Shown: in pieces, positions 8,592-56,897 of the stretch
Position numbering within the stretch: the stretch's first letter is position 1
How the letters are laid out: each line of letters begins with the position of its first letter
From: a bacterium
Lineage (GTDB): Bacteria; Oederibacteriota; CAKKQC01
Reading direction: 5' to 3'
NCBI GenBank assembly: GCA_919901855.1
Contig: CAKKQC010000008.1
Span: 20,345-84,344 of the forward strand
DNA length: 64,000 bases
The notes under the pieces: model-generated
Database searches by the model: none
What the model saw: only the letters and a program-made list of their open reading frames with translations
What the model was told of the DNA's origin: nothing
Made by a program: the position numbers and the translations under genes

Positions 8592-9845
8592 CTAGAAGTT
8601 CGGAGCTTCCTCCAGGGGCTTATCCGCCGCGGGTTCCTTGACCGCCGCCGGTGGTGGGGTCGAGACGGCAGGCTCTGTCGCAGTCGAAACGGCGGGTTCC
8701 TTCCGGGGAGTGGCGACGGCAGGTTCCGACCGGGGGGTTGCGACGGCGGGTTCTGTTGGGGTCGAGACGGCAGGTTCCGACCGGGGGGTCGCGACGGCGG
8801 GTTCCTTCCGGCCGTCGATTGTCGACTGCACAGGAACCGCCGCCAGCCCCGCCTCCGTCTTGGCCGCGGAGCCCCGGAAAGCCCCGAGATTGAACCCGAG
8901 CGACATATGGTGGGTCGCGTCGAACGGCCCCAGCTTCCCGAGGTAGGCATAGTCCACTGAGATGCCGCGGATCGCGAGCCCAAGTCCGCCCGAGAACACC
9001 CCGCCGTCGCGCGCCATCCGAACCCCCACCCGCACCGCGACCGCGACCGTGGAGACGGGCCAGACCACCTCGACCCCCGTCCGCCCCTCGGGTTGGGCCG
9101 TGGCGCGGGGAACATCGGCCGCAAAGGACAGCAACAGCCGGGCGCGGCGCGAAAGGGCCTGCTCCACCAAAGCGCCGGATCGCCAGACGAGCGGCGACGC
9201 ATCCGAGGCGCCGCCGTAGTCGAACCGTTGACCGACGTTGGCCGCCGCGAACGAGAGCACGAGCCAGTTCGGGTTTTCCACCTGCGCCGTGTCCTCGTCG
9301 TACCAGTCGGGCGGCGATAGGCGGAGGCGCAGGCGAGCCCCGAGGTCGCCGAGCATCGCCGAGGACTTGTAGGTCCCCAGGAGCGTCGAGCTCACGTACT
9401 TGAGCGACGCGCCGGCGCAGAGCGGTCCCGTCCTCGCCGCGGCGGCCAGGGCCACGAGCCGGTCGGACTCCAGGTCGGCCGTGTACCGCGTCCCCACGTA
9501 GTCGTAAGTCTCGATGGTCCCCGCGCCGAGCGTCTGGAGCGCGATTCCGCCCGAGAACCATGGCAGGATGTCGCCCGCCGCCGCTAGCCCCTCGTACCGG
9601 ACATCCTCGACGCCCTGGTCCAGCCCGGCCTCGACGGCACCGGGGCCGACAGCCCCCGCCGCCGCGGGGTTCACGAGCAGGGAGCCCGGGGAGTCCGGGA
9701 GCGCCCCTTGGGCGCCCCCGAGCGCGAGCACGCGCGCGCCAAACGGCAGGCGTGCCAGCAGTCCGCCCGCGGACCCCGCGCCATCCGCCGCGAAGGCGGA
9801 CCCGGCCGCGAGCAGGACGGCGAGGCAGGCCGTTGCCGCGGTCAC
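8592..9845 (-). CDS. PorV/PorQ-like (FadL-fold) outer-membrane beta-barrel with repetitive C-terminal tail
   Basis: Signal peptide; LPFGARVLALGGA...NPA N-terminal signature; VDYAY..LG....HHMSLGF end of barrel. GTG start overlaps the upstream stop (GTGA at 9842-9845). Confidence 0.7.
   Translation of the reverse strand: MTAATACLAVLLAAGSAFAADGAGSAGGLLARLPFGARVLALGGAQGALPDSPGSLLVNPAAAGAVGPGAVEAGLDQGVEDVRYEGLAAAGDILPWFSGGIALQTLGAGTIETYDYVGTRYTADLESDRLVALAAAARTGPLCAGASLKYVSSTLLGTYKSSAMLGDLGARLRLRLSPPDWYDEDTAQVENPNWLVLSFAAANVGQRFDYGGASDASPLVWRSGALVEQALSRRARLLLSFAADVPRATAQPEGRTGVEVVWPVSTVAVAVRVGVRMARDGGVFSGGLGLAIRGISVDYAYLGKLGPFDATHHMSLGFNLGAFRGSAAKTEAGLAAVPVQSTIDGRKEPAVATPRSEPAVSTPTEPAVATPRSEPAVATPRKEPAVSTATEPAVSTPPPAAVKEPAADKPLEEAPNF
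8625..8810 (-). repeat. Coding tandem repeat, 24-27 bp units encoding EPAV(A/S)T(P/A)x
   Basis: KEPAVATPRS EPAVSTPT EPAVATPRS EPAVATPRK EPAVSTAT EPAVSTP; DNA units such as gacggcaggttccgaccgggggg recur. Confidence 0.85.
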
Positions 9846-12166
9846 TTGAGCACCGCGAGTTTCCGAATCTTGCGCGTCCCGTCGGGCAGATCGACCACCC
9901 CGAGGTAGCCGCCCGACGCCACCGGCCGGCCCTTCGAGTTGCGCCCGTCCCAGTCCAGGATCCACTTGCCCGGCGGGAGAGCCGCGTGGACTACCTCCCG
10001 CACCAGTTCGCCCGCGAGCGTGTAGACCGTGATCCGCACGGTGCCCGTCCCGGCCGGCACGTTGACGAGGAACTGGATGATCTCGCCCCGGTCGGGATTG
10101 ATGGCCAGCGGATTGGTTCCCATGCAGGCGACCCGGACCTCACCCGGCGCGTCGGGAATCTTGGCCGGCATGACCGAGACCTCCGCGGACATGGGCCCGG
10201 TCCCGTCGCCGTTCATCGCGGTCACCACGTAGTAGTAGCGCGTGCCGTTCACGAGCCCGGTGTCGTCGAACCACGTGTTCGACGTGGTGCCGACGAGCAG
10301 GGCGGGCGAGGAGGTCACCCCCGGAGACGCGCTCCGGTACACCTGGTACGCCGACACGTTCTCGTAGGACGGGTTGGGCAGCCAGGTCACGAGGGCCGCG
10401 GTGTCCCCCTGCCGGGTTCCCGGCCCCGCGGGGGCGGAGGGCATCGTCGACCGGTACCCGGTGGTCGTGACCGTCCCGAAGAGGGGGTCGGTCCCCTTCG
10501 TGTTGCACGTGAACAGGGCGTAGCCCGTCCCCGTGACCGAGACCGTCCAGGTGAAGGTCGTCGACGACATGGGGTTGATGATGACGGTGCCGGAGAGCAT
10601 GGCCATGGTGCCCAGCTGGGAACTCGGCACGCAGGCAAACACGGAGACCGGCGACCCCGCCGGAGAGACGACCACCCGGGCACTCGCGCTGAACACGGTC
10701 CCGCCGCCCTCGTTGGTCACCGTCAGGGACACCGTGAGCTGGCCGCCGGGCACGAGCGGGAGCGGGGAAAGCGTCACGGAAGAGACGAGCCGCGCCGGGT
10801 AGGCGCAGGTCAGCGGCCGGTCGTTCCACGCCGAGTCCGTGACCGGAAGGCCCCACTCGGCGTCAAGCCCGGAGGCGGTCGCGCTGAACCAGACCTGGCC
10901 CGCCGACGACGTCGCGATCGACCAGATGAAGCGCCCGGTGGCCCCCGGCGTGAGACTACCCGTGAACCAGGTGGCCGCGAACGGTCCGGCCGAGATCGAG
11001 GCGGCGCCGGCACCCGCCACCACCTCGGCTTCGCCCGTGATGCCGCTGACCGTCGCGTCGCCAGAGTTCGTGACATCCAGGTAGAGCGACCCCGTCAGCC
11101 CGACCGCGAGATGCGCCGGCGAGACGGAAAGACTCGCGACCATCGATCCCGGGTCCCGGTCGTAGCGCTCCGTGACGCCGTAGACCGTGCCCGAAGTCGC
11201 CCAGTTCCCCCCCCAGTCGTAGCTGGCCAGCGTCGCGGACTCGCCTCCGACCGCGTAGAGCACGGTCCCCGAGGGCGGCGCGGCCACGACGAGCCCGACC
11301 CGGCCCGGCCCCGCCGGCAGACCGGGAAGATTGAACGGGGCCCGGGCGTCCCACCGGTTCGCCTGCGGGTTGAACCGCTCGCAGGCGGGCGTCGATGTTC
11401 CCTTCGCGATCCCGCCCGCCACGTAGATCATGCCGTTGCCCGGCGAGGCTGCCCCGGCGCCCCCGCGCGGGGTCGGCATCGGCGCCATCGCCGTCCAGGT
11501 GTTGGTCGCGGGATCGTAGACCTCGACCGCGCCCACGTACTCGATCTTGACGTTCGTATTGCTGACCCCGCCGATCAGCGCCGTGATGCCGCCGATGCAG
11601 TAGATCCTCCCCCCGACCGCCACCGCGGAGTGCAGGAAGCGCGGTGTCGGCATCAGCGCCTTCGACGTCCACTGATTGGTCAGGGGATCGTACGCCTCGA
11701 CCGTGTTCAGGATCGTGCCGGAGACGACCCCGCCGGTGACGTAGAGCTTGCCGCCCACGACCGCTCCGGCCGCGAACCGGCGGGGACCCAGCATCGCCCT
11801 GCGGGCCACCCAGCAGTTGCAGCCGGGATCGTAGGCTTCGTTGTCCGCCAGCCCCGCCTCGCCCCTGGTTCCGGAGACGGCGTAGATCGTTCCCCCGATC
11901 GCCGCGACGACGAGTCCCGACCGGGTCACGCTCATGGACGCCATGGAGGTCCACACATCCGCCACCGCGTCGTAGACCTCGTTCGTGATGAGGTAGGTCG
12001 TACCCGTGAGGCCGCCCACGACGTAGAGCGTGGCCCCCCATGGCGACGTGCCCGCCGCGTACTTCCGGGGTGTGGGGCTCGACGCCACCGGCGACCAGGA
12101 GTCGGCCAGGGACGTGCCGGCGCCCAGAACCAGCAGGCAGACCGCCGCGATCCGCTTCACGTTCAT
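9842..12166 (-). CDS. Secreted Kelch-repeat + Ig-like + FN3 protein with FlgD-Ig/T9SS-CTD-like C-terminal domain
   Basis: Signal peptide; Kelch blades (LYVVGG...EVYD...W, EAYDP.TNQW); TVTNEGG Ig modules; FN3 (YQVYRS..DTGLVNGTRYYYVVTA); CTD VYTLAGELVR..WDGRNSKGRPVASGGY..KLAVLK. Confidence 0.85.
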   Translation of the reverse strand: MNVKRIAAVCLLVLGAGTSLADSWSPVASSPTPRKYAAGTSPWGATLYVVGGLTGTTYLITNEVYDAVADVWTSMASMSVTRSGLVVAAIGGTIYAVSGTRGEAGLADNEAYDPGCNCWVARRAMLGPRRFAAGAVVGGKLYVTGGVVSGTILNTVEAYDPLTNQWTSKALMPTPRFLHSAVAVGGRIYCIGGITALIGGVSNTNVKIEYVGAVEVYDPATNTWTAMAPMPTPRGGAGAASPGNGMIYVAGGIAKGTSTPACERFNPQANRWDARAPFNLPGLPAGPGRVGLVVAAPPSGTVLYAVGGESATLASYDWGGNWATSGTVYGVTERYDRDPGSMVASLSVSPAHLAVGLTGSLYLDVTNSGDATVSGITGEAEVVAGAGAASISAGPFAATWFTGSLTPGATGRFIWSIATSSAGQVWFSATASGLDAEWGLPVTDSAWNDRPLTCAYPARLVSSVTLSPLPLVPGGQLTVSLTVTNEGGGTVFSASARVVVSPAGSPVSVFACVPSSQLGTMAMLSGTVIINPMSSTTFTWTVSVTGTGYALFTCNTKGTDPLFGTVTTTGYRSTMPSAPAGPGTRQGDTAALVTWLPNPSYENVSAYQVYRSASPGVTSSPALLVGTTSNTWFDDTGLVNGTRYYYVVTAMNGDGTGPMSAEVSVMPAKIPDAPGEVRVACMGTNPLAINPDRGEIIQFLVNVPAGTGTVRITVYTLAGELVREVVHAALPPGKWILDWDGRNSKGRPVASGGYLGVVDLPDGTRKIRKLAVLK

Positions 12167-12244
12167 ATGTTAGCAAGCGGAGGCTTGCGGACGGGCCCTC
12201 ACGCTTGCGGCCCTGTCCCGCATTGCGGGAGAGTGGATACACCA

Positions 12245-14146: not shown

Positions 14147-14681
14147 CCCAGATCTCCTCGCTCGCGCCCAGCAGGCCGGGGAGAAACAGCCAGACCGTGG
14201 CTCCGCGCCATCCGATCCGCGGCCGGGCCACGCCCGGCAGTTCACCCGCGAACCGGACGTAGGCCTGGGTCAGGTTTACCCCCGAAAGAAAGAACCCCCG
14301 GCCCGCGTTCCGGTCGCCCGGCAGGTAGAGACCGGGGGCGTCGCCGAAGACGGCCTCGGGCAGCTCGAACTCCATGACGGTGCCGGGGCGTCCCATGCCG
14401 GGCAGGGGGAACTCGAACCGCAGCCGGTACCGCACGGGCTGGCTGCCGCACATGCGCACGAATCTCAGCTCGACCGCCTCGGCGACCAGGGTCGCCCACG
14501 AGAAGGCCGTCCGGACGAATCCCCCGTACCGGGCGCTGAGGTTGTTCAGGAGTTTCGTGCGGCTCCGCGCCCCGTGCCACAGCCACGCCCAGCAGGCGAG
14601 GGCCACGGCCCAGAGCACGAGCGGGAACGGACCCGCGTGCCTCATCCGGCCGTCAGCCCGGCCGGGCACGTCGAAGGTCAC
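14082..14681 (-). CDS. Hypothetical protein with one N-terminal TM segment
   Basis: GTG overlaps the waaF-like stop; GC3-rich codons; hydrophobic FPLVLWAVALACWAWLW. 3' end overlaps the convergent gene by 65 nt. Confidence 0.45.
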   Translation of the reverse strand: MTFDVPGRADGRMRHAGPFPLVLWAVALACWAWLWHGARSRTKLLNNLSARYGGFVRTAFSWATLVAEAVELRFVRMCGSQPVRYRLRFEFPLPGMGRPGTVMEFELPEAVFGDAPGLYLPGDRNAGRGFFLSGVNLTQAYVRFAGELPGVARPRIGWRGATVWLFLPGLLGASEEIWVNRCFEFLEELASRTCPPPRP

Positions 14682-17397: not shown

Positions 17398-17452
17398 CGC
17401 GGGACTAGGTTATCAAACGGGCCAGGCCCGTGCCACGGCGCGACGGGACGGC

Positions 17453-18955: not shown

Positions 18956-18982
18956 GGATTCCTTGTTATAGCATTACCCCGT

Positions 18983-19021
18983 TTGACGGGACGCCCGGGC
19001 CCCGGCTAGACTGGCGGCATG
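18983..19021 (+). promoter_or_regulatory. Leaderless sigma70-type promoter
   Basis: TTGACG (18983-18988)-N18-TAGACT (19007-19012)-N6-ATG (19019); no Shine-Dalgarno. Confidence 0.7.
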
Positions 19022-19456: not shown

Positions 19457-19521
19457 CGCCCCGGCAGGGCTGGACCGGCCTCCACTGGCCGTGACTTGGC
19501 GTCCTGTGGGAAGATGAATTC

Positions 19522-20679: not shown

Positions 20680-20695
20680 CCGGCCGCAGCCGGTC
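20678..20695. terminator. GC hairpin between convergent genes
   Basis: gaccggc-cgca-gccggtc; no U-tract. Confidence 0.35.
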
Positions 20696-20757
20696 GGTCA
20701 GGCGCGTCGAAGTCCTCCTGCCGCCCCCCCAGCTTCGACGGAAGCTCGTCCTCGAGC

Positions 20758-22710: not shown

Positions 22711-22823
22711 GTCAGCACTTCCTCCTTGCTGCTCGGTGGTTCGGGGGCTATTGAACCAGATCGTCCCACTCATGACAACCGTCAGCCTGGTGGCTGAGTT
22801 GCATCATATATACAGCGCCAGCC

Positions 22824-46800: not shown

Positions 46801-49800
46801 CCGCGCTGTCGTACTTCCGGATCATCCAGTTGAAGTTCCCGGCGGAGACCTCCTCCATCCCCACCGCCACCACGGCCGCCGTCAACGGGTTCACGGCGAC
46901 GGCATGGAGGAAGTCGTGGGCAGCGTACGCGTTGCGGTAGGTCTGGGTCCACTGCACGTTCCCGTTGGCATCGAACTTCCGGAGGAGCCAGCCGAAGCTG
47001 GGCCCCGCGTACTGCTCGCGGCCCCCGACAATCACGTTCCCGGCGGCGTCCATGGCAACGGCCTCCACGTCGTCGTCGCCGTTCACGACGTTGTTGTAGG
47101 TGCGCGACCATATGATGGCCGGCGGCCCGCACGCGCCGGGAGGCGGCGGCGTCCCGATCGTGAGGACCGCCGTGGCGGACGCCTGGAGGCCGGCGGCGGT
47201 CACGACATCGATGCCCGAGGCCGTCATGGTAAATGTCGCAGTACCAGCCGCGATCGTGTCGTACGTCCACGTGAACGTCGCCGACGCGCCCGGGGCCATG
47301 AACCCCACCGAGGCCGGGACGGGCCCCGACGAGAGGCTCACGAGCCCGGCACCGGGCGCGACCACGATCGCGGGCGTCACCCCGCTGAGCGTGTCGCACC
47401 CGGTGTTGGACACGGTCAGCGTGACGACGGCCGGGACGCCGACGTTGACAGATGACGGGGCCACGCTCCCCGCGGCCGAGAGCGACGGCCCCGGTCCGTA
47501 TTGGCGCACGACGAGGTCCGTGGCCGCAATGTCCCAAGAAGTCCCGGCCAGGGCGAAGACGCCGCCCGGCGCCGTGGCCACGCCCCACGCGTCGTCCGTA
47601 TCGTGCGCGGGCGAGTCGTAGGTGTCCTCCCAGACCAGGTTGCCGCCGGGATCGTACTTCCGGACTCTCCAGTTCCAGTCCTGCCCGAGGTCGGCACGAT
47701 CCTCGATGCCCAGCACGATGACGTTGCCGTACGCATCGGACGCGGCCGAATAGGCGAGGACGTCCTGCCCCGGGACGGCATAGGCTTTTGTCCATATTGT
47801 CTGGCCCGCGCCGTCGTACTTGCATACGCGCCAAACGGCGTTGAAGGAGGGCCCGATCTCGTAGCCGGCGACGATGACGTTCTGCGACGGGTCCACGGCC
47901 ACCCCGAACCCCGCGTCACCCTGGCCCAGCGGACCGTCGTACGTCCGGCTCCAGAGGAGGGTGCCGGACGAATCGTATTTCAGGACGAGCGCGTTGCTGC
48001 TGAACCCCACCGGATCGAAGTACTCCCCCGCGACGACGCTGTTCCCCGATCCGTCCACGGCTACCGCATACGCCGTGTCAAAGGAGAACCCCGTGGGTTC
48101 GCTGGTGTAGCTCACGCTCCAGAGCAGGGCTCCGGCGCTGTCATACTTCCTCGTCAGCCAGTTCGTCTCGGTGCCCAGATCGTATCGCGTTTCCATCCCG
48201 GCCACGACGACGTTGTCGGCGCCCTCCACGGCGACGTCGTAGGCCACGTCATCCTGCCATCCAGGGCTGGCATAGCTCACGCTCCATAGCAGGGTGCCCC
48301 CGCTGTCGTACTTCCGGATCCGCCAGTCGCCCCCCTGGACCAGGTCGGGGCGGTCCTCGATCCCGCAGACGACGATGTTGTCCCCGGAATCGACGGCGAC
48401 GCCGTAGGCGATGTCGACCCCGCTCGCCGGACTGTCGTAAGTCCGCTCCCAGACGAGCACCCCCGCGCTCGTGAATTTGCGGATCTCCCAGTCGCCCGGG
48501 TCCGTGTCGCCGACGACGATCACGTTCTTAAGGGAGTCGTACGCCACATCGCGCGCACCAGCCCAGCCCAGGGCGGGGGTCCCCGCGTACGTGCGCGTCC
48601 ACTGCTCGGAGGAGGGGCACGCGACCGACGGGGGGACGATCGTGACGGAGCCGGAATCCCCGGCCGCCACCGGCCCGCCGGACAGCAGGTCGGTTCCCGT
48701 CGCCGTGCCGGCCATGGCGACCGTTCCCGTCGCCAGGGCGTTGTACGTCCAGACGAATGTCTGCGCCTTCCCCGCCGCGATCGTGACCGGCCCCGCCGGG
48801 ACCGGGCCGCTCGCGTACCCGGCCAGCGCCGCCCCGGCATCGAACCCGATGGAAGGCAGGACGCCGGTCGCATCGGCATCCCCGGAGTTCGTGACGAGCA
48901 GCAAGGCCGTGAACTGGTACCCCACCTCGACCGGCGACGGGACGAACGACAACGCCGCCGTCAGCGCGGCACCGCTCAGGGCGCCGAACGAACTCGTGGC
49001 GGACGCCGCGAACGAACAGCCCGAGACCGCATGCTGGCCGGTCGCGGTCCCGGTCACGTTTACGCTCCCCGTACCGGCGACCGAGTATGTCCAGACGAAG
49101 GTCTGGGCCGCCCCGGCGCCGAGGGCGACCGGCGGCGCCGGGACCGGCCCGCTCTCCCACGTCAGGAGCCCTTCGCCGGCGTTGAACTGGAGCGCGGGCA
49201 CGACGTTGCCGGCCGCGGCGCCCCCCGAGTTCGTGACCGTGAGCGCGATCGTGATCCACTGGCCGGCGGTGCAGGCCGGGGGGACCGCGAGCGCGACCGC
49301 GAAGGCCCCGGAGGCCGGGACCGTGATCGGGTTCGAGGACCGGGGACCCGTCGACACCGTCGCGGACGAGTTGGCATCCAGGGCCGTGATCGTCGCCGTG
49401 AACTTGAGCGTGCCCGGGGCGGTCGGCGAGTACGTCCAGGTCAGGTTCGCCGAGGCGCCGCCCGCCAGCGCCGGGATCGAGGCGGGATTCGTCAGCCGTA
49501 CCGCCGCCCCCGTCCCCTCGACGCGGAGGTTCGGCGACCCCGTGACCGCGCCCAGGGTCGCGCCCCCGGTGTTCGTAACGGTGAGCACGACGGAGACCAC
49601 CCCGCCGACGCAGACCGGATCGGGCGAGGCGGTCGCCGGGCTCCCGGCGAGCGCCGCCGGCGTCTGGATAAGCTCCACGTTCGAGACCACGGGGCCGGCC
49701 CGGAGGGAGGAGCCGAACGCGGGGTCGGTCGCCGTCACCGTCGTCGAGAAGACGACGGGACCCGCGGCGACGGCCGTGTACGTCCAGGTGAACGTCACGG

Positions 49801-52800
49801 AGGTGCCCCCCAGCAGGCTGACCGGCATCGCCGGCGTCGGCCCCGCCGTGAGTGCGGCGACGCCCGGGCCCGTCATCCGGATCGCCGCCGCGGTCACTCC
49901 CGTCGCGACGACATCACCCGTGTTCGTCACGGTCAGCGCGACCAGGAACTTCTGCGTCACGTTCCGCGGGGAGGGCCAAGCCGTCAGCGATGCGGCGAGA
50001 ACGGCCGGCCACTGGATCGCGGTTACGACCGCGACCGGACACGCGGTGCCGGTGGCCGTGAGCGTGAACTCGACCCACCCCTTGGCCGTGCACGACCAGG
50101 TCCAGGCGAATGTCTGGACGCCGCCGGGCGGGAGGAGCGCGGGGCCGGGCGGACTCGGGCCGGACACGAGGACGACGACAGAGGGGTCGGGACCCGGAGT
50201 GCATCCGGGCGCGACGGAAACCGGCGCCGCGCCGTTGTTGGTCGCGGTCAGCGTGACCGTGATCACGGATCCCGGCGGCGCGCCCCGCGGCGCCGATCCT
50301 GCGAGCCGAAGTGAGTCCGCGCCGTTGACCGTGACCACGGCCGCTTCCGACAGTCGCGGGGGGGTCCCCGTGCCATACCAAGCCGCCGCCCGGTTGGCCA
50401 CAGTGGCGCCCCCGGTCAGCGTCGAGGAGACCTTTACGCGGAACTCGAGCCAGGCCGACTTGCCCGGCGCGATCCGGTCCACGACCCACTTGAGGACGAG
50501 CGGCCCGGCGGTGCCGTCGGCCGGCTCCCCCGGGGTCCATGGCCCCGCGGCGGCGGTGGCCCACATGGACGAGACGAGTTGAGGCGTGCCCAGCCCGTCG
50601 GTCTGCGCCCAGAACCGCGTCCCCGGAGCGCGGTACCGGGTGCCGTTCGGCAGGGTGTCCAGGAGAACGAGGTTCAGCGCGGTCGACAGCCCGATTTTGC
50701 TCCACGACACCGTGTAGGTCAGCACGCCGCCGGCGCAGACGGGCGAGGGATCCACACGCTTGTGCAGAGCCAGCCCCTGCGATCCCGTAATCGTGAGGCT
50801 GAACTGCATCCCGGTCAGCCCGGTCGCGCTCACGGAGAAGACGACGAGATGGTTTCCCTCGACGGACGAGAGCATCGCCGTGCACGAGAAGGCCGCGGGA
50901 CAGCCCGTGGTCTTTCCCCACGCCGGCGCGAGACTGGCCCCCGGGCCGGGCCACGCGACCAGCCTGCCCGACACGGGCACGTTCCGGATCGGGTTCCCCG
51001 AGGCGTCACGAACCACGACGGTGACGGCCGACTTCGAGCCCGCCTCCTGCGGGTTGGGCGACGCCGTCGCCTCGATGGTCGCCGGGATTCCGACCGCGGG
51101 CCGGTAGGCGGGGAGGGGGATCTGGGTGACCGTCCCGCCGTTGTCCATGAACTTCGCCGTCGGCACGAACAGCGTCGCCGAGAACTCGAGCTGGGCGCAG
51201 TAGTCGACCGAGTACAGGGCCAGCCGGCTCGTGATCGGATTCGCCGCCATCGGCACCGTGTCCTTCGTGGTCCCCGGCCCCATGATCTCGACCACGGCGC
51301 CCGTGATCGTGACGGCATCCCGGTCGTCCGCGAGGACCGTAAACGTCACGGTCCCGGGCGTGGCCGGGGTGAAGACGTGCCGGGCCACCGGGTTCGTCCC
51401 CGACGCGTCCGAGAGGATCGTCTTCGAGTCGCGCAGGCACACGCTCGCGGCGTACCAGGGCTTCGTCGCGATCCCGCCCAGCGCCTGGTACGCGTTCACG
51501 CGCCCGTACCCCATGTGCATCTCCCAGCCGTCGGCGTTGTACGGCGCGGCGCCGGGCGCCGGCACCTTGTCGGCGGTCCGCGTTAGCCGGCGGTAGACGG
51601 TCTCGGGCGCCCAGTCCGGGTTCTGCCCGAGGACGAGCGTCGCGACGCCGGCCGCGTTCGGCGACGCCATCGAGGTCCCGCCCTCGTCGAGATAGCCGCC
51701 GTTGAACCAGGTGCTGATCACGCGCAGGGGCCACATCCCCTCGCCGGTCGCCACGACGTCGAGCTGGGGACCGTAGTTCGAGTAATACGCGAGGGTGTCG
51801 GTCCGCTCCACGGATCCGACCGCGATGCACTCGGGGTACCACGCGGGATAGCTGACGGCCATCTGGCCGTTGTTCCCGCTCGCCGCCACGAGCACGATCC
51901 CCTCGGCCGCCAGCGCGCGGAGCATGGCCTGCTCGGCGCTGGACCCGCTCGCACTCCCGAGGCTCATGTTAACGACGTTCGCCCCGTTCTGCCGGGCGAA
52001 GTCGAGTCCCTGCACGACCGCCCACGTCGTGCCCCAACCGGAGCCGGTCAGCACCTTGACCGGCATGATCTTGGGCTCCCACGTCATCCCCGCCACGCCG
52101 AGGCCGTTGTTGGCGGCCGCCCCCATGATCCCGCCCACGTGCGTCCCGTGCCCGTTGTCGTCCATCGGATCGTTGTCGTTGTTGGCGAAGTCCCAGCCCA
52201 CGATCCGGCCCCCGGCGAATGCCGGCCCCGGCCCCGTCGGCGTCACAAGGATCCGCGTGGCCCCGCCGCCGAGCTGGAAGTCCTCGTGGTCGTACCTGAC
52301 CCCGGTATCCACGTCGGCCATGATCTGGTCGGCCGTCCCCTTCGACCCCACGAGGTCAGGGTCGTTCCAGGCGCGGTCCGCTTCCATATTGACGAGCGAG
52401 AATTGCCCGTACCCGGGCGCGGCAGCCTGCTGGTAGTAGGGATCGTTCGGCACGGGGTAGACGAACTGCCGGACGTAGACGTTGGGCTCGGCCCATTCGA
52501 TGTCCGGATCCACGGCGAGCCGGTCGAGCGCGCGCGCCAGCGCCTGGCCGTTCCCCACCGTCACCAGGTGGGCGCCGATTCGGTCGATCCGCCCCCCGGG
52601 GGTGAGTCCGTGCCGGGCAAAAGCAGCCTCCCGGCCGGCCGGTGTGACCCGGTCTCCGAACTTGAGGATGATCTGGCCCGGCACCACGGGCGTCCGCGCG
52701 CCCTGCCAGGTCATCTCCTCGGAGCCGGGAGGCCGGCCTGCGGCCCAAACGGTCGCAGAAGAGCCGGCGATTGGAGACGCAGCCCCGGACGCTCCCAACC

Positions 52801-52846
52801 CCAGCACCGCCACGGCCACGGAGAGGCGACATGGACCCCAGGTCAT
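37883..52846 (-). CDS. Giant (~4990 aa) secreted S8 subtilase / DUF11 / triple beta-propeller / Ig-repeat surface protein with FlgD-Ig/T9SS-CTD-like C-terminus
   Basis: Signal peptide; prodomain (VPGQIILKF..WAEPN); triad DVDTG, HGTHVGG, GTSMASP; about 20 TVTN(T/S)G Ig modules; 4 DUF11-like units; three 7-bladed W..TY..D.A..VAVD..GN repeats; CTD FPNPF..WDGKN.RG..VAAGVY. Start uncertain (52846 or 52912). Confidence 0.88.
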   Translation of the reverse strand: MTWGPCRLSVAVAVLGLGASGAASPIAGSSATVWAAGRPPGSEEMTWQGARTPVVPGQIILKFGDRVTPAGREAAFARHGLTPGGRIDRIGAHLVTVGNGQALARALDRLAVDPDIEWAEPNVYVRQFVYPVPNDPYYQQAAAPGYGQFSLVNMEADRAWNDPDLVGSKGTADQIMADVDTGVRYDHEDFQLGGGATRILVTPTGPGPAFAGGRIVGWDFANNDNDPMDDNGHGTHVGGIMGAAANNGLGVAGMTWEPKIMPVKVLTGSGWGTTWAVVQGLDFARQNGANVVNMSLGSASGSSAEQAMLRALAAEGIVLVAASGNNGQMAVSYPAWYPECIAVGSVERTDTLAYYSNYGPQLDVVATGEGMWPLRVISTWFNGGYLDEGGTSMASPNAAGVATLVLGQNPDWAPETVYRRLTRTADKVPAPGAAPYNADGWEMHMGYGRVNAYQALGGIATKPWYAASVCLRDSKTILSDASGTNPVARHVFTPATPGTVTFTVLADDRDAVTITGAVVEIMGPGTTKDTVPMAANPITSRLALYSVDYCAQLEFSATLFVPTAKFMDNGGTVTQIPLPAYRPAVGIPATIEATASPNPQEAGSKSAVTVVVRDASGNPIRNVPVSGRLVAWPGPGASLAPAWGKTTGCPAAFSCTAMLSSVEGNHLVVFSVSATGLTGMQFSLTITGSQGLALHKRVDPSPVCAGGVLTYTVSWSKIGLSTALNLVLLDTLPNGTRYRAPGTRFWAQTDGLGTPQLVSSMWATAAAGPWTPGEPADGTAGPLVLKWVVDRIAPGKSAWLEFRVKVSSTLTGGATVANRAAAWYGTGTPPRLSEAAVVTVNGADSLRLAGSAPRGAPPGSVITVTLTATNNGAAPVSVAPGCTPGPDPSVVVLVSGPSPPGPALLPPGGVQTFAWTWSCTAKGWVEFTLTATGTACPVAVVTAIQWPAVLAASLTAWPSPRNVTQKFLVALTVTNTGDVVATGVTAAAIRMTGPGVAALTAGPTPAMPVSLLGGTSVTFTWTYTAVAAGPVVFSTTVTATDPAFGSSLRAGPVVSNVELIQTPAALAGSPATASPDPVCVGGVVSVVLTVTNTGGATLGAVTGSPNLRVEGTGAAVRLTNPASIPALAGGASANLTWTYSPTAPGTLKFTATITALDANSSATVSTGPRSSNPITVPASGAFAVALAVPPACTAGQWITIALTVTNSGGAAAGNVVPALQFNAGEGLLTWESGPVPAPPVALGAGAAQTFVWTYSVAGTGSVNVTGTATGQHAVSGCSFAASATSSFGALSGAALTAALSFVPSPVEVGYQFTALLLVTNSGDADATGVLPSIGFDAGAALAGYASGPVPAGPVTIAAGKAQTFVWTYNALATGTVAMAGTATGTDLLSGGPVAAGDSGSVTIVPPSVACPSSEQWTRTYAGTPALGWAGARDVAYDSLKNVIVVGDTDPGDWEIRKFTSAGVLVWERTYDSPASGVDIAYGVAVDSGDNIVVCGIEDRPDLVQGGDWRIRKYDSGGTLLWSVSYASPGWQDDVAYDVAVEGADNVVVAGMETRYDLGTETNWLTRKYDSAGALLWSVSYTSEPTGFSFDTAYAVAVDGSGNSVVAGEYFDPVGFSSNALVLKYDSSGTLLWSRTYDGPLGQGDAGFGVAVDPSQNVIVAGYEIGPSFNAVWRVCKYDGAGQTIWTKAYAVPGQDVLAYSAASDAYGNVIVLGIEDRADLGQDWNWRVRKYDPGGNLVWEDTYDSPAHDTDDAWGVATAPGGVFALAGTSWDIAATDLVVRQYGPGPSLSAAGSVAPSSVNVGVPAVVTLTVSNTGCDTLSGVTPAIVVAPGAGLVSLSSGPVPASVGFMAPGASATFTWTYDTIAAGTATFTMTASGIDVVTAAGLQASATAVLTIGTPPPPGACGPPAIIWSRTYNNVVNGDDDVEAVAMDAAGNVIVGGREQYAGPSFGWLLRKFDANGNVQWTQTYRNAYAAHDFLHAVAVNPLTAAVVAVGMEEVSAGNFNWMIRKYDSAGIFGWAATYTSPGTVADSPQGVAVDASGNVYAVGHETRAGQSNNWLIRKYTSAGGLVWSVSYNGAANGADIAWAVAVDPAGNPVVAGQETVAGQGMNWLVRKYDTGGNVLWNAGYNGAANGDDVARGVACDPSGSVYVAGYLTVTGQGTNWIMRKYAPGGALLWTVTYNGAANGADEAYAVCVDGAGDAVVAGMENVTGQLTNWLMRMYGPGGTLAWSVTYNNPSSADDALYGCAVSPDGLTVAAGGMEWRNDILQAPNWLVRKYVTVAAAHLAGSAAVTPSTATAGDPVEVVLTVTNTGCDTLTGVTPAIVVAPGAALVSLSSGPVPASIASLAPGSSASFTWTYSTLAAGTTVFTLTASGTDTGGGGPVAASGTAQLQIFPPAPPSCAPVLSWSRTFNDPVNGTEVVSGVAMDGAGNAVIAGWDQYAGPSFQWRVRRYDPDGNLQWDRTYKNAAARYDFPYAVAIDAANGDAVVAGREEVSPADYNWMIRRYDLAGNLVWSRTYSSAGVASDESRGVAVDAGGNAWVAGWEAAGGQGLNVLLRKYSNTGALLWSGGYNGPASGSDEAWAVAVDSSGNPVVAGMETVTGQGFNWLVRKYDASGALLWSRTYNGPANGDDFACGVAVDGSGNAYVAGVETRTDVGQGRNWLVRKYDASGNLLWSQGYNGAANLADEADACAVDGNGDVVVGGMETVTGQGMNWLIRKYAAGGTLVWSVTHSSPGSTDDYVMACAVPADGHALIAAGTATRADLGQSQNWLIRRYVTMGLGVAASVSASVISVGEWSRVALTVTNTGCTDLVNVTPALAMGPGAALAAVLDGPTPPFAGSLAPGASATFAWTVSGSAAGTVHFTLTAVGVDTGLSGTVTGVAAADLVIQLPRKRILFYGPDAGGLAATTPGITITVWNEATWATKTTADFAAFDAIVFGDQPACHASATIWDAAIATRDVWSLAVTGNVILMGASPDAAGKSELVHQAVLFAAERGAPATGLYASLSCAYEGAAPVAVDLLAGLGDFTTAAIGATVCVDAAHKVADHPALAAIDDAYLSNWGCSTREGFLDWPAGYMPLAVALWGTVWTACDGTAGTPYLLASGVAPSCPTPVVHKTVSPDRYACGDSVLTYRVAWSNAGAATVYGLTLTDTLPAGLTVVAPSFGSWLGADWLGVPAVTASAWAASVAGPWTPGEPPDATAPPVILRWVVNRVAPGQSGWLEFRASVASAVPVATVIANRASATQAGDCRVYDTEEAAVYRGAVELTMTPSAWAVTAGAPVTYTIAFGNACLVTAANLALWDTLPPGTVFVAASDGGVFDGTKVDWSLPSLDPGMAGFVTLTVSVTGASAPVGPNVARLDYTDPPGTPLSGVTSNTVWVDVVWGLPVVHKSVEPPGEVCAGSILAYTLSWSNAGVATVLELVLLDTLPGGVAWIAPSVVYTAGADGWGTPAPAASAYAASAAGPWTAGEPPDGAGSPLVLRWIVDRVAPGATGSLQFQVRVSSTLSTGTVIANAALATMANGATTYATEAASSTVVTAGVLEVAAASTPRVSVGQWVTVCLTVTNTGGSAVDGIMPDVAAGPGAELVVPESGPSPPGPVTLAPGSATTFTWTFSASGAGLAGFTATASGSTCAGTAVLAATAASTTIQVPARLDATLIAWPASVCAGGSFLVTLTVTNTGEADATGVASEPLLETGGAAAPGSGPSPAFPVILPGGGAMTFTWTYAGTAPGVSALTATVTGADANSGAPLTTGPVQSGTVAVLAPGTLEAAASAPVAVSTGEWFQVTVTATNTGAAGVTGVVAALAAGPGAALLSAALGPEPPGPVTLAGLAAQTFVWSFTATGTGPVVFSATVAGVTCGSTALTATALVASTVQAPAALGATLTVLADGVCIGDTFLVTLTVTNAGEAAAAGVTPAIGGEPGVVFVAGPWPAPPAGVPGGGSVVFTWTLSGASPGAAGFTATVTGTDADSGAAIATGPLTAGPVTVRAPGVLVSAASAGLVVSAGQWLTVALTVTNEGGSDVRNVTPSIAVGPGAGLVAPESAPSGPLTLTAGGATTFAWTWSAAGAGLIRFTMTASGDTCEATVLLATGSVSATVQVPASLEAALRAFPSPRDTGQGFLVTLTVTNTGQAGATSVAPAMPFASGTGAAVLADGPFPSIPVPLAGGAAVTFTWTYVGTAPGWVDFTTTVTAADANAGWPLAAGPAASGSVLIQAPAALQASLACLSATVCAGGTVLVTLTVTNTGGAAASLVTTAAFRASGGGTASPVAGPFPAMPASLSGGASAVFTWTFSGASPGALTLSTTVSGADANTGGGLSTGPVPAAAIAVVLPPTLAVSASVPAAVVTGQWLTVGVTVTNTGGSALFGATPAIAAGPGAGLVVPVSAPSGPLTLAPGGATTFAWTWSASGTGSVTFTMTVAGAGACGPAQVSATTTTTVETPAGLQASLVAAPTRVSVGQAVRVTLTVTNTGGGSANLAAAPVQPDGPFVTWSSGPTPAFPAVLAGGASRTFTWVFQAAAPGGLDFTATLAGTDAVSGLPLSPGMLVSGTVLIQTPALLRAALAVYSTTVCTGTGILVTLTLTNTGQADAAGVATPAPAAIGAGAAAVAGPLPPFPAVVPGGTAMTFTWTFTGSTSGRAIWTVTPAGTDANSGAAVAAPAAAGPSWFLTSAAFGLSIGAPATVAIGQCFTAVLPVTNTGGSAATGVSPVLAVSPALGAVAGPTGPAPPGPVTLAPGDTVGFVWTFTATGPGVVTLTFTVTGVSACGPATASLVRSITVQAGPVLSASLVATPSVAGVDAVISVVMTVSNTGGMTVNGVSPTAIAVTGDGGVAWMSGPQPVGATILPGTCRAFTWTYRTMRGGTVTFRAGATGANAPLVAPVASNPVVIVEAGGSLVDGRIFPNPFHWRDALGGTLKFRHLPPFTEIRLYSTAAELIRRLTADVNGSAAWDGKNTRGAHVAAGVYFYVFEAPSGSREIGKIQVKP

Positions 52847-52940
52847 GTCACCAGCATCATCGCACACCCCTCGCGGCCGTGCGCTGCCCCCGGGCCACCC
52901 ACGGCAGGTCATTGGAGCATAATGGAGGCGGGGACAGGGA

Positions 52941-55900
52941 ATGACAGCCAGGACGGATTCCGGAGCGGGACAGGGCAGGGGAGCGTGGCTGGCGCTGCTG
53001 GGCGTTGCGATGCTCGCGGCCTCCCCCGTCCGGGCGATCAAGGTCACGGCGGTCACGGTGGATCTCGAGCCCGGGGGCAGCGGGCCATGGACGATCGGCA
53101 TCACGCCGGCCACCCCGATCCACACCGGCGACTGGATCCGGGTCAACCTCACGCTTGAGAACGACACGGGCCTGATCGGCAACTCCGTCGTGGACATGGG
53201 GAGCTCCTGTCCGCCCGTTCCCTACACGTGTCCACCGGGGCCGCCCACGAACACCCTGACCGCCTTCGATCCGTTCGACTGGGTGGCCAACAACGACGGC
53301 GCCTCGGGGCAGTGGCCGGGCCAGTACTGGGTCTGGCCGTACGCTCCCCCGCCGAGCGAGTCGTGCGGCTACTTCCCGGGAAGCCCGTCGGCTCCGCTGA
53401 GCCTCGTGAGCGCCGACCCTATCATGACCTTCGCCTACAACGGCTACACGTACGCCCCGAACGCGGCGAACGACACGGAGACGGTCTCGTGGGTCTTCCG
53501 GGCCGACCTCGCGGCCTGCGGCGTCGACCTCGACATCTACGCCATGGATCAGGACGACTTCACGGGCGGCTGGAGCCACGCCCCCACGGAGGGGAGCTGG
53601 CGGGACGCCGGATGCGCCCTGACGACTGACGGCTCGGCGCACAACGTACTGGCGGCCGCCTGGGGCGGCACGCTCTGCCTGCTGCCTCCGGTCAGCGTGA
53701 CCGCGGCCGTCGTCGTCACGAGCACGGGCACGCGGCCGGCCGGCGTCGCCTTCGTCGGCGACTCGGTCGAGATCCGGGTGGACGCAACCAACGGCATCGC
53801 CTCGCCGGTCGTGGTCAACCCGGGGCAGGCCTGCCTCGGACTCGACGCGGCGCCCCTGACCGCCCCCTCCGTCTGCCCCGTCTCCATGGACGCGAAGGGC
53901 GGATGCCTCCCGGGCCGCACCGAGGCCGGCTCGCCCGTCCTCCCGGACACGATCCCCGTGGGGGCCACCCACCGGTTCACGTGGACGGAGACGATCATGG
54001 GAGCGAACGTCTGCGGCGCGTTCGGCGGCTGCACGGCCGGCGGCGCGGGCTCGGGCGCGGCCTCCTGGACCGCCGTCGTCGCCTCGACCGCGACGACGGC
54101 CGCCCTCACGGTCCAGCGCGGGCCGATCGAGATCACGGCGACCGTGTGGGTGGACCCGGACGGGGCCGGGATCGTCTACGGCGCGTCGCCTCTGGGCGTT
54201 ATCGCGCCGGGGTCGAGCGAGGCAGGCCCCTTCTATTACATGGGTGCCGAGACGCTCGAGACCAGGTTCACGTACCGGAACACCTCCGGGTACACGTTCG
54301 ACATCACCCCCGCGATCATGCCGAGCAACGTCGCGACCGAGGTGGACCTGGTCGGAGGCCCGACCCCGGCCGGCGCCTTGACACTCGCACCAGGTGCGAG
54401 TGTCTCGGCCACGTGGACGTGGGCCAAGCGCCCCGGCGGCGGGCTCGACGGGTGCACAACCGCGACCTACGACCTCGAGTTCACCTCCGCGGCGCGCGGG
54501 AACTGCCTGACCCAGTCCGTCCAGGCCAGGGACCTGCCGTTCCATCCGTACGACGTCTGCGCCGGCGGCTGCTCGCCGCCGGGGTCGCGGGCGCTGACCT
54601 TCGTCGTCCCCGCCAATGTCAACACGGGATCCGACTACCCCGTCGTCCTGCACGCGAGGAACACGGACAGCCGGCCGTTCGTGTTTGAATCCCCCCCGGG
54701 CGCGGTCTGGATTTCGTACACGCCGTCCCCGGGAACCGCGACCCCGGTGTCCTCCCCTCCCGTACCGCCCCCGCTCTACGCGTGGAACCCCGGTGAGACG
54801 AAGTCGTTCACCTGGACCTACCACGCCGACACGGACGGCGCGGTCCAGTACTGCGCCGGCATCGACTTCGCGGCGGGCTCGCCGCCATGCCATGGCGCCT
54901 GCCTCGAGACCCCCCCGTACTGCGGGTCGTCGTTCGGCTTCGTCCAGCAATCCACCCCGGGCGCCCTCGAGATCACGAGCTTCGCGGCCTCATCCGCGGT
55001 CGCCGTCGCCGGCCTGGACGGGGCCTTCAACCTCCAGATGAACCTGAGGAACAACGGGGCCGACTGCCTCCGCGTCATCGGCTTCTGCTCGCTCGGTTAC
55101 CCGGATGTCCAGCCGACGGGCAACGCGTGGGACGCAGCCTCGCCCCCCGCCCCGTCCGCGTCTCCCAACCCCGCGGTGCCCTTCATCATCCAGCCCGGCG
55201 CCACCCAGCTCGTGACCTGGTACATGACCGCAAACTGCCCCGACGCCACGTCGGGCGCGATCTCTTTCGCGTGCGGCTCATCCATGGTCAAGGCCGAGAG
55301 CATCGATTGCGTGACGAAGGCGGTCATCACCCCGTCCGTGGTCGCGGACTGGACCGGCCCCCCCCTGCCGCCGGTCCAGATGACCTCGGCTGCGTACCTG
55401 TCGGCGTCCATCTGGACGGACCAGGCCCAGTACTCGATGGGGCAGGTCGTCACCGTGTTCCTGAGCGTGTCGAACTCGGGCGGCAACGACGTGACTGCGC
55501 TCGGCATCACGATGACCCCGAACACGTTCGCGGGCGCCGCCGTCGTCGCCGTCGCGGGGCCGGTCCCCGCCGTGCCCGCGACGTACCCGGGGAGCGGCCA
55601 GTGCACGTCCCCCGAGCCGTATAACTCCCGCACGACCTTCGTCTGGAACTACACGGTCGCGGCCGCGGGGTTCGTCAGTTTCACCGCCAAGGCGGTGGGC
55701 ACGGATGGCATCTCCGGGCTCGACGTCGGGACGACCGCCACGACATCCAAGGCCGGACTCAGCACCGGCTCGGGACTCGAGTGCGCGATCCTGGCCCCGC
55801 CCGTGGACGTGGTCACGATGACGGCCACGTGCGCCGGCTGTCCGGCAGTCTCCAACTGCGATTCCACCACCGGGAACGGCTGTCTCGACATCGTAATGGC

Positions 55901-56897
55901 GGCGTCGAACCTGGGCGGCATCGACCTCGTGAACGCGACGGTGTCGCAGGGGACGGCGGTGCTCAAATCCTGCGCGCCCGGCTCGTGCGCCGCGCCGGGT
56001 GTCTTCCCCGCGACAGCCTGCCCCGCGCCCACGTGCGAGCCCGCGGAAGCGACCGTCCCCGGGACGATCCCGGCCGGATCGACGCGCAACTACACGTGGC
56101 GGTACGATCCGGCCGGTCTCGGGTGCGTGCGCGCGCTGGCCCAGGTGAGCGGCTTCGACGGGGCCACGGGGGCGCCCCTGCTCCAGAGCGCGTGGGGCCC
56201 GTGCGTCGAGATACTGCCCCGCTGGCCGGTCGAACTCACGCTGCTGTCCGCCCCGCCGCAGATCGCCCCCGGCCAGCGGTTCGAGATCCCGGTCCGCGCG
56301 TGCAACCCGGGGATGACCCCGGTGGCCCTCCAGGGCGGCCAGCCGGCCCTCCAGTTCTCGCTCGGGGGCGCGGCCGTCACCGACCAGTACGACACCGACC
56401 CGCCCCCCTCCGGCACCATCGCGGTCGGCGGGTGCCGGGACCTCGCCATCGGGGTGGTCGCGCGGCGGGACGCGACGCCGGGCGTCGTCACCATCCGCGT
56501 CCCCCAGGGCTCGCAGTACGTGGCGATGGACGCAACGACCGGACTGCCCGTCACCGCCCTCGACGGGGGGGGCGCGCTGACCATCCGGGTCTCCGATCCC
56601 CGGAGCCGCCTCTTCGTCACGGGAGAGCATCCCGTCCATATCCTCCGCGATCCCGCGCTCCTCGAGTACGTGCTCGCGGACGCCGGCCGGGGCAACGGCC
56701 GGCTGACCCTCAGGATCTACACCCTGACGGGCGAAATGGTCCGCTCGCTCGTCGACAAACCCGCGGTCATCGAGGATTGCGTGGTGCCCTGGGACGGCCG
56801 GAATGCCGCCGGCCAGCTCTGCGCCGGCGGCGTCTACCTCGCCAGGCTGGAGGCCCCCGGCTTCTCCACCACCGCCAAGGTCGCGATAGTCAAGTAG
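52941..56897 (+). CDS. Secreted Cys-rich Ig-repeat protein with FlgD-Ig/T9SS-CTD-like C-terminus
   Basis: Signal peptide (AWLALLGVAMLAASPVRA); repeated ..N..G..L.PG....FTWTY modules; CTD IYTLTGEMVRSL..WDGRNAAG..CAGGVY..KVAIVK. Confidence 0.8.
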   Translation: MTARTDSGAGQGRGAWLALLGVAMLAASPVRAIKVTAVTVDLEPGGSGPWTIGITPATPIHTGDWIRVNLTLENDTGLIGNSVVDMGSSCPPVPYTCPPGPPTNTLTAFDPFDWVANNDGASGQWPGQYWVWPYAPPPSESCGYFPGSPSAPLSLVSADPIMTFAYNGYTYAPNAANDTETVSWVFRADLAACGVDLDIYAMDQDDFTGGWSHAPTEGSWRDAGCALTTDGSAHNVLAAAWGGTLCLLPPVSVTAAVVVTSTGTRPAGVAFVGDSVEIRVDATNGIASPVVVNPGQACLGLDAAPLTAPSVCPVSMDAKGGCLPGRTEAGSPVLPDTIPVGATHRFTWTETIMGANVCGAFGGCTAGGAGSGAASWTAVVASTATTAALTVQRGPIEITATVWVDPDGAGIVYGASPLGVIAPGSSEAGPFYYMGAETLETRFTYRNTSGYTFDITPAIMPSNVATEVDLVGGPTPAGALTLAPGASVSATWTWAKRPGGGLDGCTTATYDLEFTSAARGNCLTQSVQARDLPFHPYDVCAGGCSPPGSRALTFVVPANVNTGSDYPVVLHARNTDSRPFVFESPPGAVWISYTPSPGTATPVSSPPVPPPLYAWNPGETKSFTWTYHADTDGAVQYCAGIDFAAGSPPCHGACLETPPYCGSSFGFVQQSTPGALEITSFAASSAVAVAGLDGAFNLQMNLRNNGADCLRVIGFCSLGYPDVQPTGNAWDAASPPAPSASPNPAVPFIIQPGATQLVTWYMTANCPDATSGAISFACGSSMVKAESIDCVTKAVITPSVVADWTGPPLPPVQMTSAAYLSASIWTDQAQYSMGQVVTVFLSVSNSGGNDVTALGITMTPNTFAGAAVVAVAGPVPAVPATYPGSGQCTSPEPYNSRTTFVWNYTVAAAGFVSFTAKAVGTDGISGLDVGTTATTSKAGLSTGSGLECAILAPPVDVVTMTATCAGCPAVSNCDSTTGNGCLDIVMAASNLGGIDLVNATVSQGTAVLKSCAPGSCAAPGVFPATACPAPTCEPAEATVPGTIPAGSTRNYTWRYDPAGLGCVRALAQVSGFDGATGAPLLQSAWGPCVEILPRWPVELTLLSAPPQIAPGQRFEIPVRACNPGMTPVALQGGQPALQFSLGGAAVTDQYDTDPPPSGTIAVGGCRDLAIGVVARRDATPGVVTIRVPQGSQYVAMDATTGLPVTALDGGGALTIRVSDPRSRLFVTGEHPVHILRDPALLEYVLADAGRGNGRLTLRIYTLTGEMVRSLVDKPAVIEDCVVPWDGRNAAGQLCAGGVYLARLEAPGFSTTAKVAIVK

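Follow-up and report, generated by a model that had tools for sequence, protein, structure and literature searches.

Neighbouring genes for putative type-A-like sorting tails and PorV/PorQ-family barrels in an SprA-bearing, apparently Coatesbacteria-like genome

Type 9 secretion (type 9 secretion system, T9SS) is placed in the Bacteroidota or the FCB group, and is taken to be powered by the GldLM/PorLM motor (PMC7463736, PMC11611037, PMC11205867, PMC10994853, PMC12635249; papers are cited throughout for excerpts of their text). In the Bacteroidota system, PorV captures the C-terminal domains (CTDs) of cargo proteins inside SprA (PMC10994853). In the attachment complex of Porphyromonas gingivalis, uncleaved type-A-like CTDs keep PorZ on PorQ and PorU on PorV (PMC10202324). 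Type-B cargo is served by dedicated PorP/SprF-like carriers, as exemplified by SprB and SprF of Flavobacterium johnsoniae (PMC12618676, PMC9143113, PMC12635249), and a Cys-x-Cys motif couples Bacteroidota carriers to GldK (PMC12635249). Here, we describe a PorV/PorQ-family outer-membrane barrel and three proteins with a common C-terminal tail, encoded in a 64,000-nucleotide stretch of bacterial DNA (hereafter, the window; C8:20345-84344) within a 4.68-Mb assembly of 91 contigs that is 93.5% complete. Homology, gene order and prediction reveal the tail, a PorV-type carrier and an SprA-type translocon, arranged as cargo-carrier gene pairs. The reading that we favour, and regard as probable, is that these parts make up a reduced type-9-like export and display pathway that operates across the genome, depends on SprA and keeps each cargo on its own PorV-type carrier.

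A preliminary description, made from the sequence of the window, had proposed that three proteins with signal peptides share a C-terminal domain of about 90 residues and that one of them, a Kelch protein, overlaps a PorV/PorQ-like barrel gene. Both observations hold. The three open reading frames (ORFs) exist (Table 1), and their last ~95 residues align with a pairwise identity of 30-31% around the motif Y(T/S)..(G/A)E.(V/I)R....WDG(R/K)N..G..(V/C)A.G.Y....K..(V/I). The N-termini of all three cargoes are signal-peptide-like, as judged by eye without a predictor. On the minus strand, the TGA stop codon of the Kelch gene (9844-9842) and the GTG start codon of the barrel gene (9845-9843) form a GTGA overlap. 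The barrel gene most likely runs from 8592 to 9845 and not to 9965, its signal peptide directly following the GTG start. Only the Kelch protein, among the three window cargoes, has an adjoining barrel gene.

Table 1. Coordinates of the tailed proteins and the barrel within the window.
Feature	Coordinates	Strand	Description
PorV/PorQ-family outer-membrane barrel	8592..9845	-	417 aa; signal peptide, barrel, repeat tail
Cargo 1 (Kelch protein)	9842..12166	-	774 aa, secreted; tail about 9845-10129
Cargo 2 (giant subtilase)	37883..52846	-	4987 aa; tail about 37886-38170
Cargo 3 (Cys-rich protein)	52941..56897	+	1318 aa, secreted; tail about 56610-56894

A hidden Markov model (HMM) of the tail, seeded with the three window tails and iterated over all six-frame ORFs of the genome, converged on 82 ORFs, 68 of which carry a terminal tail (domain at most 15 residues from the stop, E<=1e-5). 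These 68 ORFs range from 69 to 10,753 residues and sum to 105,902 residues; the tailed cargo genes alone account for about 7% of the genome. The barrel family, collected by a jackhmmer search that was started from the window barrel and run to convergence, comprises 67 ORFs. A same-strand barrel starts within 223 nt of the tail end in 41 of the 68 tailed genes, and within 86 nt in 40 of them; a recount with one domain per barrel ORF gave 40 pairs. When the 67 barrels were placed at random (1000 trials), the mean number of pairs was 0.23 and the maximum was 3. The 26 unpaired barrels include six with a weak or offset tail-like stretch upstream and two at a contig edge, the rest having none. Pairing is therefore a genome-wide feature, wider than the single case from which the preliminary description had started.

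Tails and barrels also covary. Across the 41 pairs, distances between tails correlate with distances between partner barrels (Mantel r = 0.57, a value reached by 0 of 5000 permutations; r = 0.37 when limited to barrel pairs of less than 35% identity). The pairs are thus inherited or evolve as units, a pattern that both co-duplication and co-adaptation fit. In a FastTree tree of the 68 tails, which is short and weak, the paired/unpaired label changes 14 times, compared with a null mean of 21.4 (14 or fewer in 0 of 300 shuffles), indicating that barrel-less cargo tends toward tail groups of its own.

Co-folding of CTD and barrel had been suggested as a check. The window barrel (residues 21-335) and the Kelch tail gave a score of 0.86, compared with 0.00 for the best of three controls; this mark is reached by 116 of 157 solved complexes and by 2 of 215 mismatched pairs. 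At least 95% of the contacts were common to three runs, and the pLDDT of the partner was at least 82. The predicted docking passes its controls; since a PorV-CTD complex has been solved, the pass may derive from likeness to that complex rather than from binding by this barrel copy.

The window barrel consists of a signal peptide, a barrel extending to about residue 320 and a proline/threonine-rich repeat tail (8592 to about 8830). Its AlphaFold2 model (pLDDT 87.7, pTM 0.82) has PorV chains as its top solved matches in Foldseek, namely, 8gl6_F (E 3.2e-11, TM 0.71/0.66) followed by 6h3i_F, and FadL structures rank second (TM about 0.5). The barrel family profile matches the solved F. johnsoniae PorV (6h3i_F) over its full length with an E value of 2.6e-28; the next match is CymD, a FadL-family channel (E 3.7e-6). 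With NCBIfam models, the window barrel scores 54.3-55.5 bits for PorV_fam, the cut-off of which is 90, and 44 bits for PorQ. Among 25 sampled members of the family, 24 match PorV_fam (NF033709, counted at E<=0.01), 23 match PorQ, 12 match PorV, 11 match 'PorV2' and one matches PorP/SprF (TIGR03519). Sampled paralogs are 19-28% identical to the window barrel. A word search of 5.8 billion proteins returned three close homologues and one distant homologue, and a 4-row orthologue alignment found no relative in a search of the genome contigs.

The tails were typed on a set of 30, comprising the three window tails, one SprA-linked tail and 26 from other genomes, with family matches taken at E<=1. 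All 30 match FlgD_ig, 17 match Por_Secre_tail (PF18962) and 24 match the type-A sorting domain TIGR04183 (best E 7.6e-10); a single tail matches the type-B domain TIGR04131. The best NCBIfam matches are the C-termini of PorZ (27 of 30) and PorU (28 of 30). FlgD_ig and Por_Secre_tail had both been named as families to search for. The Kelch tail exceeds the FlgD_ig cut-off, all three isolated window tails match that family at the threshold used here, and Por_Secre_tail is recovered in the proportion just given. By homology, the tail appears to be a divergent T9SS type-A CTD, and it likely folds as a beta-sandwich. The name FlgD_ig reflects fold likeness to the immunoglobulin (Ig) domain of flagellar FlgD and implies no flagellar role. 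Very long tailed frames are also present: five tailed ORFs, including the window giant, exceed 4,700 residues, and the open frames at C40:156456-188714 and C40:103109-122224 (10,753 and 6,372 aa) end in the sorting tail.

The three window cargoes differ in content. Cargo 1 contains five Kelch repeats (Kelch_1, E 1.9e-48) forming a beta-propeller, Ig-like/CARDB-like spacers and fn3. Residues 694-754 match FlgD_ig (PF13860) with 32.6 bits (gathering cut-off, 27), and the tail alone scores 34.7 bits; the tail has an E value of 2.6e-21 with the iterated genome tail HMM and, among the matches listed, matches FlgD_ig and not TIGR04183. Cargo 2 combines a Peptidase_S8 domain (E 2e-47) with DUF11, CARDB and SBBP repeats. 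Its length is counted from the ATG at 52846, the frame being open to 53197. Its final 70 residues show a weak match to the C-terminus of PorZ (24.1 bits), and with the tail HMM the tail has an E value of 8.6e-17. No barrel gene is adjacent to cargo 2, and the next same-strand barrel is 28 kb away. Cargo 3 as a whole protein matches no Pfam or NCBIfam family and has the C-terminal sorting domain only (tail HMM, E 1.4e-19); it likewise has no adjacent barrel, and its tail shares 71% identity with the tail of a further unpaired cargo, encoded on contig C27. If the giant starts at 52846, cargoes 2 and 3 diverge across a 94-bp spacer (52847-52940). Both are without a private barrel, and they may be co-regulated.

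A search of the genome for SprA, PorU and GldKLMN had been proposed. SprA was found outside the window, as a single gene on contig C23 encoding a 1951-aa ORF that scores 263.5 bits with TIGR04189 (cut-off, 200) and is weakly similar to the solved F. johnsoniae SprA (6h3i_A, E 8e-19). It is followed by a gene for a 709-aa tailed protein and then by a 309-aa barrel, the PorV_fam score of which (106.4 bits) is above the cut-off of 90. The models for GldL (TIGR03513), GldM (TIGR03517) and GldN had no matches in the genome; these HMMs are Bacteroidota-trained and had no positive control, and for this reason we report the motor as not found rather than as absent. GldK was represented only by partial matches of the FGE-sulfatase type (at most 69 bits; cut-off, 350), which also occur in 3 of 14 unrelated control genomes (Bacillus, Caulobacter and Methanosarcina). 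None of the 14 controls matched the SprA, GldL, GldM or GldN models. The peptidase core of PorU was not found either, as all nine genome matches to NF033707 fall at model positions 957-1094, within the CTD.

The same distribution recurs in the phylum. In a sample of 61 genomes from 18 families of the same GTDB phylum, SprA is present in 58, and the barrel profile has matches in all 61 (9 to 38 each, of which no more than 37 were scored). None of the 61 genomes has a GldM match, even at E<=0.001, and GldL exceeded its cut-off in 0 of 61, with one weak match (E 6.9e-4), neither model having had a positive control. PorU exceeded its cut-off in 0 of 61 genomes, and nearly all PorU matches lie in the CTD part. 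Weak matches to the peptidase part (35-62 bits) occur in six genomes, none of them from the family of the source genome. The corresponding ORFs (596-1508 aa; G031, G012, G040, G035, G048 and G019) could be C25-type peptidases or a distant sortase.

Apart from housekeeping enzymes, clustering of the genes flanking SprA in 75 loci yielded a ComF-like gene (47 loci) and no motor-like gene. The location of SprA among housekeeping genes suggests that it is a long-resident, vertically kept gene. The ComF-like protein encoded after SprA (loci within L052-L126) features a double zinc ribbon and a phosphoribosyltransferase domain. FliG_C and MotA_ExbB each have three matches in the genome, none less than 9 kb from a barrel. 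An apparently ordinary flagellar cluster is located on C19. Additional FliG_C-like genes map outside it, at C54:16461-16712 and C88:1495-1773; contigs C54 and C88 carry no barrel or tail, even at relaxed thresholds.

The nearest named SprA proteins are those of Candidatus Coatesbacteria (66-67% identity). Next are FCPU426, Goldiibacteriota, Firestonebacteria and many Elusimicrobia records, with 25-37% identity. Because the nearest SprA proteins belong to Coatesbacteria and then to Elusimicrobia-type records, the organism is, as judged from this gene, neither a member of the Bacteroidota nor of the FCB group, but appears Coatesbacteria-like and allied to Elusimicrobia. The preliminary description had envisaged a divergent CTD/barrel secretion or display pathway in a different phylum, and the SprA placement and the genome-wide pairs support this view. 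The contrary possibility that it had raised, a Bacteroidota member with a canonical T9SS, disagrees with the Coatesbacteria affinity of SprA and with the failure to find motor and sortase.

Cargo-barrel gene order extends beyond this genome. The operon of SprA, tailed protein and barrel is kept in three Coatesbacteria-type loci with enough flanking sequence, and tail-then-barrel pairs are also found near SprA in Firestonebacteria and Elusimicrobia loci. Of 29 further genomes of the phylum, each represented by its best-scoring barrel, 13 have a terminal tail less than 400 nt upstream of that barrel, and a 14th has one at 524 nt. In five named records, three from Elusimicrobia, one from Goldiibacteriota and one under the label Clostridia, the barrel profile has 14, 27, 55, 26 and 31 matches, and a tail lies immediately upstream of 19 of the 30 best barrels in this set. 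SprA relatives also occur in three records under the Clostridia label (L113, L118 and L125), which is probably wrong. The L113 genome has 31 PorV-like barrel matches, and four of its six best barrels have a tail upstream.

Many barrels extend beyond the barrel domain. A C-terminal extension of at least 40 residues is present in 39 of 65 barrels. Ten sampled extensions comprise CsgG/LpoB/TolB_N-like (three), OmpA (two), TPR (two) and fn3 (two) modules, and one without a match; a CsgG/LpoB-like motif is found in 13 of 65 barrel tails. The Cys-x-Cys motif was found in 0 of 65. The C-terminus of an outer-membrane barrel is normally periplasmic, and the OmpA, CsgG/LpoB-like, TPR and fn3 modules therefore look like periplasmic or cell-wall contacts. 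They could act as cell-wall fixings of the barrels. Modules of this kind are encoded, for instance, at C33:38024-38503, C19:4689-5168, C38:112756-113313, C32:42599-44044, C23:53390-54361 and C63:72147-72443. The window barrel differs from these module-bearing paralogs in having the proline/threonine-rich repeat tail instead.

In the pathway that we propose, cargo would cross the inner membrane by Sec, and its C-terminal tail would then target it, by homology with known systems, into the single SprA-type translocon. The cognate PorV/PorQ-family barrel, of the 14-strand type, would take over the tail, as PorV captures CTDs inside SprA. The uncleaved tail would stay on the barrel, in the way known for PorZ on PorQ, PorU on PorV and type-B cargo such as SprB on PorP/SprF carriers (PMC10202324, PMC12618676, PMC12635249), and the barrel may thus serve both as an extraction device and as a permanent surface anchor. 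Two observations underlie this scheme. Most barrels are encoded directly behind a cargo gene, which points to a private carrier for each cargo, and no PorU sortase that could cut the tail was found, so cargo likely stays bound to its carrier. Cargo that lacks a barrel of its own, which in the window means the giant protease and the 1318-aa protein, might use a shared or orphan barrel.

Several points weigh against this scheme. That SprA exports the cargo, that the tail is retained and that the barrel anchors it are steps that we infer. An adjacent barrel is missing for 27 of the 68 tailed genes, two window cargoes among them, and about 20 barrels are not preceded by a tail; a private carrier for each cargo is consequently a majority pattern and not a rule. 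The Mantel correlation could stem from the duplication of pairs as units, without binding specificity, and the co-fold covers the cognate pair only. The window barrel itself falls under the NCBIfam PorV_fam cut-off (54-55 bits, compared with 90). The negative results for motor and sortase come from Bacteroidota-trained HMMs that had no positive control and from a genome that is 93.5% complete, the weak matches to the PorU peptidase (35-62 bits) leave a sortase-like step possible in some genomes, and no conserved energy-coupling gene lies beside SprA in the 75 loci.

Four other explanations were weighed. The organism may have a complete T9SS, the PorL/M, PorK/N and PorU proteins of which are too divergent for Bacteroidota-trained TIGRFAM/NCBIfam models, with the expansion of carriers as its only unusual trait. 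The lack of a positive control for the GldL/M/N models, the weak similarity of SprA itself to its F. johnsoniae counterpart (E 8e-19), the partial GldK matches of the FGE-sulfatase type (69 bits) and the weak PorU peptidase-region matches in six phylum genomes would all fit. However, SprA (58/61) and PorV (61/61) are easily detected at equal evolutionary distance, whereas GldM is found in 0/61 at E<=0.001; like partial GldK matches appear in the Bacillus, Caulobacter and Methanosarcina controls; all nine PorU matches of the genome lie in the CTD part (positions 957-1094); and the GldK-coupling Cys-x-Cys motif is found in none of the 65 barrel tails. We consider a hidden complete system unlikely. 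Less likely still is that the pairs work independently of SprA, each barrel acting as a private translocator in the manner of two-partner secretion or a split autotransporter, with SprA otherwise employed. Translational coupling is indeed tight (the GTGA overlap; 40 pairs within 86 nt), the search for an energy source for SprA came up empty, and SprA is surrounded by housekeeping genes, a ComF-like gene being its neighbour in 47 of 75 loci. Yet the barrel protein is homologous to PorV, has an N-terminal segment in or at the barrel and belongs to a family known to act as carriers rather than as pores (PMC10994853). Moreover, 27 of the 68 tailed proteins are without a private barrel, SprA lies in an operon with a tail-barrel pair, and SprA, barrels and tails co-occur across the phylum. 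Judging from established knowledge of barrel sizes, folded cargo of up to 10,753 aa would also be too big to pass a barrel of ~14 strands.

The pairs might alternatively be mobile shuttles, releasing cargo to the medium or passing it to another anchor, in which case they would not serve permanent display. Once exported, the type-A cargo of F. johnsoniae parts from PorV (PMC10994853), the tails of this genome are type-A-like and not type-B-like, and the cargoes include many proteases or glycan-binding proteins, which could be active in free form. This explanation is disfavoured, although it is about as plausible as an undetected complete T9SS. No PorU-type peptidase that would remove the tail was found, a one-to-one gene ratio would be wasteful for a recycled shuttle, and the barrels bear OmpA peptidoglycan-binding and other periplasmic domains. 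In addition, the best NCBIfam matches of the tails are the uncleaved PorZ and PorU tails (27 and 28 of 30), and PorZ and PorU stay on PorQ and PorV (PMC10202324). A plain FadL transporter, that is, an ordinary channel for hydrophobic substrates encoded beside a secreted protein by chance, was also considered and rejected. The preliminary description had recognised that a FadL barrel with no predicted CTD contact and no co-occurrence would undo its proposal. FadL structures do rank second by fold (TM about 0.5), but PorV chains come first (TM 0.71/0.66), the profile is far closer to PorV than to CymD (E 2.6e-28 versus 3.7e-6), 41 pairs are observed where 0.23 are expected, and the co-fold of the tail passes its controls. 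A chance neighbour of this type is extremely improbable.

The favoured reading, SprA-dependent export with cargo kept on private carriers, can be extended to a broader and more tentative one, which we consider possible but rather doubtful. SprA, a PorV-type carrier and the CTD may represent an old, self-sufficient export core without GldKLMN or sortase, preserved in Coatesbacteria, Elusimicrobia and allied phyla, in which private carriers double as cell-wall-tethered anchors. The T9SS of Bacteroidota, which has a single general PorV, a motor and PorU, would then have elaborated later on this simpler scheme of one carrier for each cargo. In either form, the system poses the question of what a minimal type 9 machine is, and how SprA would let go of its cargo if no motor is present. 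With 41 natural pairs of cargo and carrier, this one genome offers a ready specificity matrix for the choice of carrier by CTDs, and carrier choice is left open for type-B pairs by Paillat et al. 2025 (PMC12618676). The pairs would also account for the way in which uncultured phyla of groundwater may cover their cells with very large proteins. Annotators could interpret a FlgD_ig-tailed giant beside a 'hypothetical' barrel as a display pair.

Elsewhere in the window there is no further secretion gene. The other genes are unrelated housekeeping genes, encoding an MFS transporter, a heptosyltransferase, a phosphoglycerate mutase, a peroxiredoxin, an FKBP and an acetyl-CoA synthetase; a family-B DNA polymerase, ABC exporters, GH4, GH38 and others are also encoded. 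The polymerase, a 763-aa ORF at 25673-27964 on the minus strand (PF00136, E 5.5e-27), adjoins a GNAT gene and two ABC exporter genes, and is unusual in a bacterium. Three overlapping ORFs of more than 900 aa occupy positions 358-5326 (358-3111 on the minus strand, 475-3261 and 2588-5326 on the plus strand). They have a high GC content at third codon positions and no Pfam match, and are alternative candidates for the real gene.

No paper was found that links Elusimicrobia, Coatesbacteria, Firestonebacteria, Goldbacteria or FCPU426 with T9SS parts, supplements and subscription journals lying outside the scope of this literature search. Excerpts of PMC12204202 name Elusimicrobi and T9SS without connecting them, and in those of the Goldbacteria paper (PMC7031533) type IX occurs only in a reference. 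The SprA, PorV/PorQ and type-A-like CTD families are known, as is the principle of dedicated carriers for type-B cargo. What is new is the combination: private PorV/PorQ carriers for type-A-like tails, tens of pairs per genome, a lineage outside the Bacteroidota and the FCB group, and motor, ring and sortase not found. Since database models already name such proteins, the finding is partly implicit in annotation.

Among the systems to which the locus can be compared, FadL-family channels share a broad barrel fold class with the barrels described here, but have lower fold and profile scores than PorV and no link to protein tails. The SprA-PorV-CTD translocon of F. johnsoniae (PDB 6H3I, 8GL6; PMC10994853) has homologues of all three parts in this genome; its PorV chains are the best solved matches of the barrel model, and the tail is predicted to dock. 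The SprA protein is about 450 residues shorter (1951 versus 2403 aa), the phylum is different, GldLM, GldKN and PorU were not found, and there are many carriers instead of one general PorV. The type-B pairs exemplified by SprB-SprF are similar in having one carrier per cargo, neighbouring genes, cargo that is bound and displayed and a periplasmic C-terminal tail on the carrier. In contrast, the barrels of this genome are PorV/PorQ and not PorP/SprF (1/25), the tails are type-A-like (type B in 1/30), and neither a Cys-x-Cys tail (0/65) nor a GldK/GldJ track was found. About 41 pairs are present in the 4.7-Mb genome, compared with 12 type-B substrates in F. johnsoniae. The PorZ-PorQ and PorU-PorV pairs of P. 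gingivalis resemble the system in both partners, as the tails best match the PorZ and PorU C-termini (27 and 28 of 30) and the barrels match PorV_fam (24/25) and PorQ (23/25). In P. gingivalis, however, two pairs serve the sortase machine, whereas about 41 or more pairs occur here, with no PorU core found. The pairs of this genome are, moreover, encoded by adjacent genes, and their cargoes are enzymes, adhesin-like giants and propellers rather than machine parts.

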